From positions 38,593 through 102,592 of the forward strand of contig CAKOKU010000003.1 of the NCBI GenBank assembly GCA_934095865.1: a stretch of DNA of 64,000 bases, written 5' to 3'. A program made the position numbers and the translations under genes. Every line of letters starts with the position of its first letter. Positions within the stretch are counted from its first letter, which is position 1. Below the pieces are notes generated by a model. The model did not search any database. It saw only the letters and a program-made list of their open reading frames with translations, and had not been told where the DNA came from. This DNA comes from an uncultured Bacilli bacterium (lineage in GTDB: Bacteria > Bacillota_I > Bacilli_A > RF39 > UBA660). This document shows positions 11,722 through 20,260 of the stretch, in pieces.

Positions 11722-12093
11722 ATGAGTAAGAAAGATGCAAAGAATACACCAGCTAAAAAGGATGATTCAATGGTAGAGGTAAGAGTAATCAACAATTTCC
11801 TAGACAAAACAAAAAATAAAAAGTTCATGTCAGTTGATACTGTTTATAAGACAGATAAAGACAGAGCTGATGAATTAGTTAGACTAGGTTATGTTGTATA
11901 TGTTGCCGAAGATCCAAATGCTAATGGTAATGTAGATCCAAATGCTGATGGAAACGAAGATCCAAATGCTAATGGTAATGTAGATCCAAATGCTGATGGA
12001 AACGAAGATCCAAATGCTGATGGAAACGAAGATCCAAATGCTGATGGTAATGTAGATCCAAATGCTGATGATTCAAATGTCCCAAACGAATAA
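11722..12093 (+). CDS. repeat-containing protein with DPNA(N/D)GN(V/E) octapeptide array
   Basis: ATG 11722 after GAAAGGTGG (track ORF opens at 11638 within the leader). The C-terminal half is ~7 tandem octapeptides. Confidence 0.6.
11911..12078 (+). repeat. 24-bp coding tandem repeat, ~6.7 copies, two alternating unit variants
   Basis: GATCCAAATGCTAATGGTAATGTA / GATCCAAATGCTGATGGAAACGAA, read directly; order a-b-a-b-b-a'-partial. Confidence 0.95.
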
Positions 12094-12185
12094 CAGATGA
12101 TAGTTTCTATCATACAACCGCTTGGAAAAAGAAACGTCTTGAAATATTAAGACGTGATAACTATGAGTGTCAACGATGTAAGTCA

Positions 12186-12392
12186 ATGGGTAGAGTTACA
12201 ACTAATAATCCACATGGCAAAGGGAAGAAGGTCAAGATAGAAGTTCACCACAAGAAAGAACTTAAAGACTTTCCAGAACTTGCACTTGTAAATAGTAATT
12301 TAATTACTTTATGCACGAGATGTCACAATGAAATTCACGAAAGGTTTAAATATCAAGTATCAAAGAAATTTACTAATGTCGAACGTTGGTAA
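12186..12392 (+). CDS. HNH endonuclease (packaging-associated); homologous frame is open from 12072 but has no canonical start before 12186
   Basis: 'VHHKKEL...NLITLCTRCHNEIH' is the HNH core. The first zinc pair and the 'FYHTTAWKKKRLEILRRDNYECQRC' box lie upstream of the only ATG. Confidence 0.75.
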   Translation: MGRVTTNNPHGKGKKVKIEVHHKKELKDFPELALVNSNLITLCTRCHNEIHERFKYQVSKKFTNVERW

Positions 12393-12496
12393 ACATATCC
12401 CCCCCGGTCAAAAAATTCACCATCAATTTGGGGGTGAAGTAAACGTGAGGGGGCAGTGACTTTGGAGGAATTTCAAAAAAATTCATGTGAAGGGGG
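12393..12496 (+). other. candidate cos / packaging-recognition region
   Basis: C7 (12399-12405), G5 (12430-12434), G5 (12449-12453) and G6 (12492-12497) runs in an otherwise AT-rich phage. Located between HNH and terS, as in HNH/cos phages. Confidence 0.35.
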
Positions 12497-12505
12497 GTGG
12501 TGTAT

Positions 12506-12874
12506 ATGGCAGCCGCTCAAGAAACTAAAAAATCAAAAAAGAGATTATCCGGTACAAGAGGGAAAATCTATAAAAGTTTAAAAGAGCAATTAGAACTTGC
12601 TGATAATTATAACGATTACACAGAGGATCTATTAAGAGATTACATTACGATGTATGATACCAAATGCAAACTCGCCCAGGACATCGAAGATAGAGGTGTA
12701 TCTTTGGAATATGACAACGGCGGTGGACAAAAAGGTCGTAAGAGCAATCCTAGTATTGATCTTATGAATCGTACGAATGCACAAATGCTAAAACTACTTG
12801 ATGCACTTGGATTAAAGCCGTCAAAGATGCTTACAAAATCGCCAGATGATGGTGATGATGATGACGAGTTGTAG
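12506..12874 (+). CDS. terminase small subunit, P27 family
   Basis: 'EDLLRDYITMYDTKCKLAQDIEDRGV...GGGQKGRKSNPSIDLMNRTNAQMLKLLDALGL' is typical of P27 terS. ATG 12506 is 8 nt after the G-rich RBS. Confidence 0.8.
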   Translation: MAAAQETKKSKKRLSGTRGKIYKSLKEQLELADNYNDYTEDLLRDYITMYDTKCKLAQDIEDRGVSLEYDNGGGQKGRKSNPSIDLMNRTNAQMLKLLDALGLKPSKMLTKSPDDGDDDDEL

Positions 12875-14519
12875 TAATAAGTATGTACAAGAATATTTTG
12901 ATTTAGTAGAATCTGGTAAGATTATAGTTTGCAACAAAGTCAGACAAAATATTGAGTTAGTTAAGGCTAAACTCAATGAAGATGTTTACTTTGAAGATGA
13001 GAAAATCGAAAAATCGATAAGAGCCATTGAAAAATATTTTTTTAAATTATTTCCGTTCCAAAAATACATCTTAGCATGTATTTTTTTACGTTATAAAGCC
13101 GATAATAAATTGGTTTTTAAAGAATTTTATCTTAAATTAGGACGTGGAAATGGAAAAAATGGTTTAATATCCGCTCTTGCTTTTATTCTGATTTCAAATA
13201 TCAATAATGTTATGAGTTATAATGTTGAAATCATAGCAAATAGTGAAGAACAAGCAATGACATCTTTTGAAGATGTTTACAATGTAATTGATGATCCTCA
13301 CAATGCTAAATTAGCAAGTAAATTTGTTTATACAAAGGAAAAAATCACATTTAAAAAAACACGATCAAGGCTAAAATTCTATACATCCAATCCAAAAACT
13401 AAAGATGGTGGTCGTCCAGGCTGTTTAATTTTCGATGAGATTCACGCTTACGAAAGTTTTAAGAATATTGACGTTCATACATCAGGTTTTGGTAAGAAGC
13501 CAGATAGTCGTACATTTATGATTACGACTGATGGTAATGTAAGAGATGGAGTTTTAGATTCATACGATGGTGAAGCCGCTTGTGTTTTAGATGGCTCAAT
13601 ACCGAATTCAAGAATGTTCCCGTTCGTATGTGAACTAGATGATCCAGAAGAAGTTGATAATCCAAAGATGTGGGAAAAGCCATGTCCAGCGATTAACTAT
13701 TTACCAGAATTAAAACAAGAAATGCTTGATAAATATCAATCAATGCAAATTCGTCCTCACGAAAGAAATGAATTCATGACTAAAAGAATGAATTTACCAC
13801 ATCGTGATGAAGCAACCGCAGTTGCTAAATGGGAAGATATAGAGGCTACCAATCAAGAAATACCAAATTTAGAGAATTATACCGCAGTCGGTGGAATCGA
13901 CTATGCGGAGGTACGAGATTTTTGTGCAGTAGGACTATTATTCAAGAAAGATAATAAATATATCTGGTTACATCATACTTTTATTTGTGGCAAAAGCCCT
14001 AATTTAAAGGCTATTAAGTTCGATATTGATTTAGCAATTGATAAAGGCATAGCAGAGATTACTAATGGAAATACAATAGATCCGGAATTAGTCGTATGTT
14101 GGTTTTTAAATGCTCTAAAAAAATATGGAATTAAAAGAATTGCGATGGATAGATTCCGTTATAATGTATTAAAAGATACATTTAATAAATACGGTATTTA
14201 TCCGCAAGACAAAGAACATCCAGACGGACTACTCGTGTTGATAGGTAATGGTTACATTACACATAACAAAGTTGCCCCACTAATTGATGAGATATTTGCT
14301 AATCACAAAATAATTTATGGCGATGATCCGATGATGAGATGGTACACCAACAATACCTATGTTGATGTTGATAAAAAAGGTAATAAATCTTATAAAAAAA
14401 TCGAGCCTAAATTAAGAAAAACAGATGGTTTCATGGCACTTGTTGCAGCAATTAGTATTGAAAATGAAATTCCGTTTGATACAAGCGGAGCAGAATTACT
14501 TGGTGCAATAACATTTTAG
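12846..14519 (+). CDS. terminase large subunit (Terminase_1 family)
   Basis: 557 aa. P-loop-like 'LGRGNGKNGL', Walker B 'CLIFDEIHAYE', C-terminal nuclease region. Follows terS; exact start uncertain. Confidence 0.85.
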   Translation: MMVMMMTSCSNKYVQEYFDLVESGKIIVCNKVRQNIELVKAKLNEDVYFEDEKIEKSIRAIEKYFFKLFPFQKYILACIFLRYKADNKLVFKEFYLKLGRGNGKNGLISALAFILISNINNVMSYNVEIIANSEEQAMTSFEDVYNVIDDPHNAKLASKFVYTKEKITFKKTRSRLKFYTSNPKTKDGGRPGCLIFDEIHAYESFKNIDVHTSGFGKKPDSRTFMITTDGNVRDGVLDSYDGEAACVLDGSIPNSRMFPFVCELDDPEEVDNPKMWEKPCPAINYLPELKQEMLDKYQSMQIRPHERNEFMTKRMNLPHRDEATAVAKWEDIEATNQEIPNLENYTAVGGIDYAEVRDFCAVGLLFKKDNKYIWLHHTFICGKSPNLKAIKFDIDLAIDKGIAEITNGNTIDPELVVCWFLNALKKYGIKRIAMDRFRYNVLKDTFNKYGIYPQDKEHPDGLLVLIGNGYITHNKVAPLIDEIFANHKIIYGDDPMMRWYTNNTYVDVDKKGNKSYKKIEPKLRKTDGFMALVAAISIENEIPFDTSGAELLGAITF

Positions 14520-14534
14520 GAAAGGTGGGATTTT

Positions 14535-15683
14535 ATGGGATTTTTTAATTGGTTAAAATTTGCTTTTACCAAAGATGGAATCGCCGATTTATCCGAAACC
14601 TTTGATTCAGATGTTTTGCTTGAAGTGTATTATAAAGAATTGGCTATATTTAGTGCAATCAATCTTATTTCTAAAGGTTTAGCGAATAGTACATTTAAGA
14701 CTTATCACAAAAACAAAGAAATTAAGAAGGATAATTATTATTTATTTAATATTGAGCCTAATCCAAATCAAAATGCACAGGAATTCTGGAATCAAGCAAT
14801 ATATAACCTCGTTTATAACAACGATGTTTTAATTATCCAGGCTAATGGATATTTTTATGTTGCAGATTCATTTATTAAAGGCGATAAAGTGTTATATCCT
14901 AATGATTTTACTGATGTTCAAATCGGTACATTAACGATGAGAAAAAAATATTTTCAAAATGAGGTATTTTATACAAAATTAAATTATCGTAAAGTGTCGG
15001 AACTTATTGACGGTTTATATTCTTCTTACGGAAAACTATTATCTCATGCAATGAAAGATTATAGTAAAAGGGGAGGTATAAAAGGTCAAGTTAAATTATC
15101 AACGGCTTTTTCGCAAAGGTTTAATGACCAAGAAAAGTTAAGACAATATATTCACGATAAATTTAAGAGTTATTTTGATTCTACTAATGCAGTAATGCCA
15201 GTTGAAGACGGATTCCAATTTATTGAATCAGATAAATTGAAATCGACAACTAATAGTGAAGAAATTAACAAACTTATTGATGAAATATTTTCTATAACAG
15301 GAATTGCTTTTAATATTCCAAAAGGTTTACTTATGGGAAATCTAGCAGATTTAAAAAGTTCTATCGAGAGTTTTCAAACTTTTTGTTTAGATCCAATATC
15401 AAATATGTTTGAAGATGAAATCAATCGTAAATTATATGGAAAAGATGCATATTTATCTGGAACATGTTTAAGAATTGATACATCGTCATTAAAACACATC
15501 GACATATTAGAAACGGCATCTAATCAAGAGGCACTTATTAGGAATGGTTATAGTCCTAATGAGGTAAGAAAAATTGTAAAATTCGATCAGGTAGATGAGG
15601 AATGGGCTAATACACACTATATAACTAAAAATTATAGTGCAGATTTAAGCAAAGAAAATGAGAAAGAAGGTGAACAGGCATGA
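14535..15683 (+). CDS. portal protein (HK97-type)
   Basis: 382 aa, placed between terL and the prohead protease; 'NPNQNAQEFWNQ...' portal-like features. Confidence 0.8.
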   Translation: MGFFNWLKFAFTKDGIADLSETFDSDVLLEVYYKELAIFSAINLISKGLANSTFKTYHKNKEIKKDNYYLFNIEPNPNQNAQEFWNQAIYNLVYNNDVLIIQANGYFYVADSFIKGDKVLYPNDFTDVQIGTLTMRKKYFQNEVFYTKLNYRKVSELIDGLYSSYGKLLSHAMKDYSKRGGIKGQVKLSTAFSQRFNDQEKLRQYIHDKFKSYFDSTNAVMPVEDGFQFIESDKLKSTTNSEEINKLIDEIFSITGIAFNIPKGLLMGNLADLKSSIESFQTFCLDPISNMFEDEINRKLYGKDAYLSGTCLRIDTSSLKHIDILETASNQEALIRNGYSPNEVRKIVKFDQVDEEWANTHYITKNYSADLSKENEKEGEQA

Positions 15684-19601: not shown

Positions 19602-20039
19602 ATGCAAGAAAACATTACTAATACAGAATCGGTTGTTAATGAAACACCAATTCAAAACGTAGAAACAAATGTTGAAAATAAAGAAATATCAAAAGAAGAA
19701 ATTACGGAAACACCAAAAGTTGAAACAGAAAAATTACCTAAAAGGGCTATTAGATTAGAAGATGGCACTATAATCAATAATCTAAAAATCACTTATAAGA
19801 ATTTATTTGATTTTCAAAATCATTATGAAAATTCAAAGGATTTAATGGAAGCATTAGTTAAGAAGCAAACCTTTGAGCATGAGGTTATGGTCCAACTAAT
19901 TTATGTTGGTTATTTAGGGACTAATCCAACTAATAAAATGTCGTATTTTGATTTTATAGATGCAATTCCTTTTGATTACAAAAGAGATATGACATTATTT
20001 AAAGAATTAACAGGATTAAATGCTGATTCAAAAAACTAA
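19602..20039 (+). CDS. tail assembly chaperone (gpG-like)
   Basis: 145 aa directly upstream of the tape measure; ends in the slippery A_AAA_AAC. Confidence 0.75.
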   Translation: MQENITNTESVVNETPIQNVETNVENKEISKEEITETPKVETEKLPKRAIRLEDGTIINNLKITYKNLFDFQNHYENSKDLMEALVKKQTFEHEVMVQLIYVGYLGTNPTNKMSYFDFIDAIPFDYKRDMTLFKELTGLNADSKN

Positions 20040-20260
20040 AATTCCAAAAGTCTTTAAGAAAGGTAACCGCTAATAAGAAAGATAAATATCTTACAGCGAC
20101 ATTAGATATATGTACGATTGCAGATATTTATACACTTTATGTGCTCAATGCGAAAATACCTAGTGAGGACTTTTGGAATCAAGATATTAACTTTTTAGAA
20201 TCTGTATATTTTAACAAAATGACATTTAATAAGTGGGAAAACAATCCGAAAGAGAGGTGA
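20030..20260 (+). CDS. -1 frameshift extension giving gpGT-like chaperone (19602..20036 joined to 20036..20260)
   Basis: In-phase heptamer A AAA AAC at 20030-20036. The -1 frame is open for 76 codons and stops (TGA 20258-20260) just before the tape-measure GTG at 20265. Confidence 0.75.
   Translation, partial: KKLKFQKSLRKVTANKKDKYLTATLDICTIADIYTLYVLNAKIPSEDFWNQDINFLESVYFNKMTFNKWENNPKER

Follow-up and report, generated by a model that had tools for sequence, protein, structure and literature searches.

How does a prophage produce an HNH endonuclease whose reading frame offers no start codon for the N-terminal half of the enzyme? The question is raised by the packaging region of a siphovirus-like prophage located in a 64-kb stretch of DNA (contig CAKOKU010000003.1 of an uncultured Bacilli bacterium; hereafter the window, 64,000 nucleotides in all). 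An HNH-homologous frame is open there on the + strand over 106 codons (12072-12392), closed on its 5′ side by a TGA (12069-12071) and ended by a TAA (12390-12392). No ATG, GTG, TTG or CTG is present in this frame 5′ of an ATG at 12186, the only start-like codons being ATA at 12090 and 12144. Overlapping its 5′ end is a zero-frame gene (11722..12093, + strand) that encodes a 123-amino acid (aa) protein with the C-terminus ...VPNE. This open reading frame (ORF) has a strong Shine-Dalgarno (SD) site, AAAGGTGGTG, 8 nt before its ATG, and sits in the +1 neighbouring frame relative to the HNH frame. Its last codons read gtC CCA AAC GAA TAA and include a candidate slippery heptamer, C_CCA_AAC (12081..12087, + strand), phased with the ORF and separated by one codon from the stop (TAA, 12091..12093, + strand). 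A preliminary description of the locus had reported the open HNH frame without a canonical start before the first CxxC, the position of the upstream stop and the phasing of the heptamer, all of which we confirmed. It had also proposed that a −1 slip would fuse the upstream repeat protein to a complete HNH domain, and this proposal is favoured by conservation in 16 lineages, synonymous positions included. We consider it likely that a conserved −1 programmed ribosomal frameshift yields a conserved N-terminal domain (N-domain), an acidic linker and the HNH nuclease as one 223-aa protein, because HNH loci split into two clades with and without start codons, the phased CCCAAAC is invariant, the third base of the codon before CCA (C3) is constrained and initiation signals are absent.

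The HNH frame encodes a recognizable enzyme that extends well 5′ of ATG 12186. Its 106-residue translation matched the Pfam HNH family (PF01844, 4e-9) over residues 33-91, covering the full profile (1-47). PHROG HNH families (best 6.5e-23) aligned from residue 9, that is from position 12096, which indicates that the homologous protein begins ~90 nt upstream of the sole ATG. The nearest solved relative was the HNH protein of Geobacillus virus E2 (GVE2; 5h0m; profile match 3.4e-11). Residues invariant in our alignment of the family (alignment A1) comprise the FY..W motif, C30, C33, H56, H57, N73, C78, C81, H82 and H86, arranged as CxxC...HH...N...CxxCH...H, with the catalytic His/Asn/His and the four-Cys zinc site present. 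The 68-aa ORF that begins at ATG 12186 lacks the first CxxC of that zinc site. Among 11 sequences, the residue was kept in 56 of 103 HNH columns, and 34 of these 56 carried synonymous differences. Such synonymous changes in columns with an invariant residue indicate that the HNH frame, including the part 5′ of ATG 12186, is under purifying selection.

To place the window among its relatives, DNA was taken from ENA, Logan, IMG/VR, GTDB genomes and JGI/ENA metagenomes. Sixteen distinct lineages resulted, with HNH sequences 77-100% identical; their assemblies are independent and come from human and rabbit gut metagenomes, metagenome-assembled genomes (MAGs) and IMG/VR. The layout of the window recurred in all 16: a start-less HNH frame, a phased heptamer and a nearby zero-frame stop. 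Local tblastn on all loci separated two groups. Every locus at ≥77% identity had no ATG, GTG or TTG 5′ of FY..W..CxxC and carried CCCAAAC, and each of the ~80 HNH loci at ≤55% identity had its own start and unrelated genes upstream. In five lineages (L008, L018, L019, L147 and L151), the HNH frame contains no ATG, GTG or TTG at all. As evidence against a −1 slip, the preliminary description had envisaged related phages with an independent HNH start at the equivalent position; no close relative had one, own starts being found only at ≤55% identity.

Protein databases mirrored this split. A protein search with the full HNH frame returned matches of 77-100% identity only as 68-78-aa calls, and full-length HNH proteins with their own start only at ≤55% identity. 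Public calls for L133, L134, L138 and L146-L151 give either a 68-78-aa HNH stub or a ~400-nt gene-free gap before terS. In public annotation, the HNH gene of these phages is systematically absent or shortened. A blastn search of the annotated phage genomes in INPHARED found no relatives, returning one low-complexity match to a Maribacter phage.

CCCAAAC occurs a single time on the + strand of the window. In this phage, an in-phase XXXYYYZ begins at ~1% of codons, nearly all of them made of A/T only; a lone in-phase heptamer near a stop is therefore not rare by chance, and its evidential weight comes from conservation. CCCAAAC was invariant and in phase in 16/16 lineages, in the context ...N C CCA AAC (G/A/T)AA TA(A/G)..., and alignable conservation starts exactly at the first C of the heptamer, the tails 5′ of that base being unalignable. 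The −1 frame opens 0-3 codons 5′ of the heptamer in every lineage. The zero-frame stop is TAA in 12 of the 16 lineages and TAG in the other 4, never TGA. In L147, GAA has become TAA by a G-to-T substitution, which places the stop directly after the heptamer and leaves the length of the −1 frame unchanged.

Constraint on the heptamer extends to bases that the zero-frame protein does not require. The zero-frame codon before CCA is GTC, GCC, ATC, AAC, GAC or AGC, so that C3 is kept in 16/16 lineages across six amino acids. The phage is poor in this base (29% G+C overall, 7.7% third-position C), and of the tail codons just 10.4% have C as third base (V 5%, A 3%, I 4%, N 16%, D 17%, S 20%). The chance product for C3 in six independent contexts is ~3e-7. 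In the same way, AAC is invariant in the heptamer, though it represents 14% of phage Asn codons; as a baseline, 19/53 of the HNH codons that encode an invariant residue outside the heptamer region are themselves invariant. The pattern is also visible at the protein level, since ~55 distinct upstream proteins, including 18 representatives of 50%-identity clusters, all end in xPNE, xPNK or xPN. The residue x is V, A, I, N, D or S. E, K and Q, which lack a codon ending in C and account for 14% of tail residues, never occupy this position. Because the constraint reaches synonymous positions, it points to a slippery site.

According to the frameshift reading, most ribosomes would read ...C CCA AAC GAA and stop at the TAA, releasing the 123-aa protein. 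A minority would slip back by one base with tRNA-Pro(UGG) on CCA and tRNA-Asn(GUU) on AAC. Both tRNAs would then re-pair, the P-site tRNA from CCA to CCC and the A-site tRNA from AAC to AAA, and the slipped ribosomes would go on with CGA ATA ACA GAT GAT.... As decoded after the slip, the HNH endonuclease frame (12087..12392, + strand) would comprise 101 codons plus the TAA; together with the codons of 11722-12087, it gives a predicted 223-aa fusion in which the acidic tail would link the N-domain to a complete zinc-binding HNH nuclease. Since the HNH frame has neither a start codon nor a ribosome-binding site, all HNH would be produced tethered in this way, and the efficiency of the slip would set its amount. 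Both the slippage and its efficiency are what we infer from the sequences. A low efficiency is possible and would fit a nuclease of which little is needed.

Is such a slip plausible in this phage and its host? The tail-assembly-chaperone region of the same phage carries the heptamer A_AAA_AAC (20030..20036, + strand) with a TAA directly after it (site and stop, 20030-20039). The −1 frame at this site (20027-20260) has 77 codons and ends just before the start of the tape-measure gene. From this arrangement, slipping with A_AAC in the A site beside a stop codon is, as far as gene layout tells, this phage's own canonical G/GT-type form. The HNH site of L147, C_CCA_AAC followed by TAA, has the same arrangement. 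The host tRNA set (35 genes in a 79%-complete genome) includes just one tRNA-Pro(UGG), which has to decode CCA as well as CCC, and three tRNA-Asn(GUU). It also includes tRNA-Lys(UUU) together with tRNA-Lys(CUU), and for tryptophan tRNA-Trp(CCA) only. Since tRNA-Lys(CUU) is present, A_AAG should lack the slipperiness that it has in E. coli, which fits the use of A_AAC. According to a recoding review, C_CCA_AAG is highly shift-prone in E. coli and X_XXA_AAC sites serve the g-t genes of archaeal viruses (PMC5009743). A_AAA_AAC is a proven frameshift site of insertion sequences, with no established stimulator (PMC4066793).

Structures or sequences that could stimulate slippage were sought on both sides of the heptamer. 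The downstream stem-loop that the preliminary description had suggested looking for was seen: a hairpin, ATGATAG-ttt-CTATCAT (12097..12113, + strand), begins 9 nt after the heptamer and has a 7-bp AU-rich stem. It was part of the minimum-free-energy fold of most lineages (60-nt segments, −4.4 to −9.0 kcal/mol), and 94% of cells in the 7-bp stem were paired across 15 sequences. An outer 3-bp helix was 67% paired; it showed AU, CG and GC at one pair and was unpaired in 8 of the 15 sequences. L003 (2926-2931) has GAT AAT (Asp-Asn) for GAT GAT, by which its hairpin loses a G-C pair, and its fold was the weakest at −4.4 kcal/mol. On the 5′ side of the heptamer, no conserved SD-like stimulatory element was found. 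The hairpin is a possible weak stimulator of slippage.

Several observations weigh against programmed frameshifting and have to be set beside this evidence. First, no lineage swaps CCCAAAC for another valid slippery heptamer, a change that would have been proof of the covariation kind. Second, the 7-bp stem is short and AU-rich, shows no compensatory change and falls within conserved codons (DD.FYH); the energy of the consensus fold is just −4.6 kcal/mol. Third, X_XXA_AAC is a modest shifter in E. coli. Fourth, genuine frameshifts are often accompanied by occasional relatives in which the two frames are fused. An in-frame fusion of N-domain and HNH was found neither by a word search of 5.8 billion proteins with the fused 223-aa query, nor by a search of 1.84 billion proteins with an N-domain hidden Markov model (HMM), nor by a family profile search. 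Finally, in 16/16 lineages the HNH frame has an invariant ATA that abuts or overlaps the zero-frame stop, and in some HNH relatives (such as L057 and L094) FY is preceded by just 2-5 residues, which would make a protein initiated at this ATA structurally viable.

These last two points belong to the main rival of the frameshift reading, in which the heptamer is incidental and a free HNH protein of ~100 aa is made at a very low level from the ATA (12090..12092, + strand; cgaATAa), by weak initiation or by termination-reinitiation. The same codon would be decoded as Ile in the event of a frameshift. The geometry is that of ATGA/TAATG translational coupling, with a start-like codon overlapping the upstream stop. 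NCBI translation table 11 includes ATA as a possible start, and the host is one of the small-genome Bacilli that some records label 'Tenericutes', organisms with a higher frequency of unusual starts. The lack of in-frame fusion relatives also agrees with a free protein. A TGA as the zero-frame stop would turn the ATA into ATG, and its avoidance could mean selection for very low expression.

We nevertheless consider initiation at ATA rather unlikely. The three bases of the ATA are the third base of GAA/AAA and the TA of the stop; dual coding explains their invariance fully. Being fixed by the overlapping zero-frame codons, the ATA is invariant without adding independent information. A start at this codon would leave the invariance of CCCAAAC unexplained, including C3 (~3e-7) and the rare AAC. 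There is no SD site within 20 nt 5′ of the ATA, in contrast to the strong sites of the upstream gene and of terS, and initiation at ATA in E. coli reaches a level of ~0.1-1%. Unlike in ATGA/TAATG coupling, the codon here is ATA and not ATG, GTG or TTG. One A-to-G change would give the standard ATGA overlap, TGA being a normal stop in this phage, yet this was seen in 0/16 lineages. Because the TGA stop is never used though it lies one base away, the absence of a proper HNH start looks maintained, not accidental.

Conservation by itself cannot tell a nucleotide motif from a slippery site, and the conserved block CCCAAACGAATAAC might instead be an RNA or DNA signal unrelated to slippage, with a role in packaging or regulation, the HNH being expressed by some other route. 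The block lies ~300 nt upstream of a conserved C/G-rich candidate cos region. This region, the intergenic segment between HNH and terS (12393-12496; L001 3220-3330; L004 3238-3348), contains a C7 run and several G5-G6 runs that are kept in diverged relatives, in a phage otherwise of 29% G+C, and a role as cos or in terminase recognition is plausible. A signal unrelated to slippage is nonetheless very unlikely in our view. The block coincides exactly with a phased X_XXY_YYZ at the sole place where the start-less −1 frame opens, and it ends an ORF whose variable-length tail always keeps frame with it. Nor is another way of expressing the HNH apparent.

The weakest alternative, that the HNH gene is broken (by a one-base indel, a lost start, pseudogene decay or an assembly error) or yields only the 68-aa piece from ATG 12186, draws on the 68-78-aa fragments or empty positions given by public gene callers and on an out-of-frame ATG at 12097 just before the FY codons, and it has next to no likelihood: the pseudogene and the assembly error considered in the preliminary description conflict with the recurrence of the layout in 16 lineages, which come from many assemblies and samples independent of one another, and with purifying selection on the full-length frame (synonymous changes in 34/56 columns). 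The related contigs show synonymous divergence and are not copies of one defective element. The truncated 68-aa HNH that the preliminary description also considered would lack the first CxxC and conflicts with the five lineages in which the frame is devoid of ATG, GTG and TTG.

Three further candidates were rejected. Reading TGA as Trp would extend the HNH frame by ~10 codons to a TAA or TAG without gaining a start; moreover, TGA is the stop of 8 of 29 phage ORFs and the host has tRNA-Trp(CCA) only. Transcriptional slippage finds no homopolymer of more than 3 bases at the site. A start at the out-of-frame ATG 12097 with a later shift on GGAAAAAG does not fit, as HNH homology and conservation are already in the HNH frame from 12096.

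What, then, would be joined to the nuclease? The conserved N-domain of the upstream protein (11722..11904, + strand; alignment A2) is a 61-residue conserved part, with ~45 folded residues after a basic leader. Its AlphaFold2 model (mean predicted local distance difference test score, pLDDT, 79) has four short strands, one helix and a final strand. The best Foldseek neighbours of the model were uncharacterised small phage proteins, including DUF7210. Against the PDB, matches were weak (E ≥0.13) and comprised GINS B-domains and the C-domain of lambda gpFI (E 0.2); the modelled likeness to the latter is only a lead. At the level of sequence, the N-domain matches phrog_5279. A whole-library profile search found 28 relatives, 18 of which (E <1e-10) are proteins of 99-156 aa with an N-terminal domain and an acidic tail; the more distant relatives are 55-75-aa stand-alone domains.

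One stand-alone copy bears on the function of the N-domain. L145 (895-2141), a prophage from the same host family, has a 54-aa stand-alone homologue (phrog_2616) located 3 nt upstream of TerS (phrog_309, 2.8e-54). Because this copy adjoins the TerS gene, the comparison suggests that the N-domain is an ordinary packaging-module component. Just 5′ of the stand-alone N-domain, L145 has a gene with an HNH-like H..N..H pattern and without a Pfam or PHROG match. Searching 401 genomes of the host class with the N-domain returned the window copy and one distant stand-alone homologue only, and an IMG/VR scan added no loci to the set already collected.

The N-domain is followed by an acidic low-complexity tail (11905..12080, + strand), which would serve as the linker of the fusion. 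In the window, it consists of 24-nt repeats encoding DPNA[N/D]GN[V/E] (11907-12070; Tandem Repeats Finder, period 24, 6.8 copies) and is free of Lys and Arg. The repeat units are lineage-specific (L001-L151), with 24-nt units in the window and EEPKTDGEPNVDD or KELEED units in others. Tails of 42-85 codons were unalignable between lineages and were in frame with the heptamer in every one. Tail composition is D 25%, N 21% and E 11%.

The late operon starts at this locus. Along the prophage, a tyrosine recombinase and small genes are followed by the acidic-tail gene, HNH, the C/G-rich gap, the small terminase subunit TerS (Terminase_4), the large subunit TerL, the portal and a ClpP-like protease. 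On the + strand, TerS, the next gene after HNH, occupies 12506..12874 (family match; strong SD site) and is followed by TerL (TerL_ATPase/nuclease, 12846-14519) and the portal (14535-15683). The order HNH, Terminase_4, TerL, portal was identical in the window and in all related loci. No promoter-like or terminator-like site was found on the + strand between the acidic-tail gene and the HNH frame. The host genome (G000; 36 contigs, 1.2 Mb, 79% complete) belongs to the Bacilli, and the MAGs that contain related prophages carry the label uncultured Bacilli or 'Tenericutes'.

In tailed phages, programmed frameshifting of tail chaperones is textbook knowledge, and some capsid and tail proteins are further known examples. 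The lambda G/GT type of −1 frameshift in tail-assembly chaperones (Levin 1993; Xu, Hendrix and Duda 2004) is covered in the recoding review (PMC5009743). The HNH locus resembles this type in having a phased X_XXY_YYZ at the end of a short ORF with the zero-frame stop 0-1 codons later, and a −1 ORF without its own start or SD site. The two predicted products would likewise share their N-terminus, the longer one presumably being the minor form. In contrast to the G/GT type, the proteins concerned are a packaging-module protein and an HNH nuclease and not tail chaperones; the extension would be an autonomous enzymatic domain that is a free-standing gene in other phages, and the P-site codon is CCA (C_CC) rather than A_AA or G_GG.

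Two slippery heptamers of related form are C_CCA_AAG in phage T3 and C_CCA_AAA in Lactobacillus phage A2. Both phages use −1 frameshifts in capsid-protein genes, in T3 in gene 10, according to the same review (PMC5009743). As at these sites, a C_CCA_AAN-type heptamer would give some copies of a protein an additional C-terminal domain, and A2 is a phage of Firmicutes. The differences are that the last base of the heptamer here is C (an Asn codon), that a nuclease and not an Ig-like decoration would be added, and that the downstream domain is without another expression route.

HNH proteins of the HK97 gp74 / GVE2 type are encoded beside terS/terL in cos phages and assist terminase cleavage. The HNH described here shares the residue pattern of this type (5h0m/5h0o) and lies directly upstream of terS, terL and portal genes; it matches the terminase-associated class in sequence and gene context. 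That class includes zinc-ribbon HNH endonucleases (PMC3592412). Unlike the HNH of the present family, those of the HK97 gp74 / GVE2 type are free-standing genes with their own starts, many having a 15-50-residue N-terminal extension; in the GVE2 protein (5h0m), 48 residues precede the aligned core. Here, the N-terminal extension would come from another gene via a change of frame. A fusion of HNH and packaging proteins has a precedent in phrog_4581, a 'small terminase' family which contains an HNH segment, whereas none is known for fusion by frameshift. We found no literature report of frameshifting in HNH or packaging-nuclease genes, and HNH is not mentioned in the 300,000 characters examined of the recoding review (PMC5009743).

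A more specific and doubtful proposal, which we offer only tentatively, is that no free HNH exists and that a frameshift-set fraction of the packaging protein bears the nuclease through a long acidic tether of DNA-mimic-like character. The N-domain, maybe with a fold like that of small phage proteins such as the gpFI C-domain, which binds the prohead, would bring the nuclease to the terminase-prohead assembly, with the tether silencing it elsewhere. If true, this would be a new, translationally programmed way to deliver and restrain a cos-cleavage helper nuclease.

If the frameshift reading is true, a systematic annotation error is to be corrected, public calls for the phage family giving an HNH stub or no gene, and C_CCA_AAC would function for slippage in gut Bacilli that have small genomes and carry tRNA-Lys(CUU). 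The HNH would be permanently tethered to a small protein that elsewhere stands alone next to terS, which would provide a direct experimental handle on the role of that widespread small protein. In this phage family, an essential packaging enzyme would be made only as a recoded fusion, its dose set by slip efficiency.

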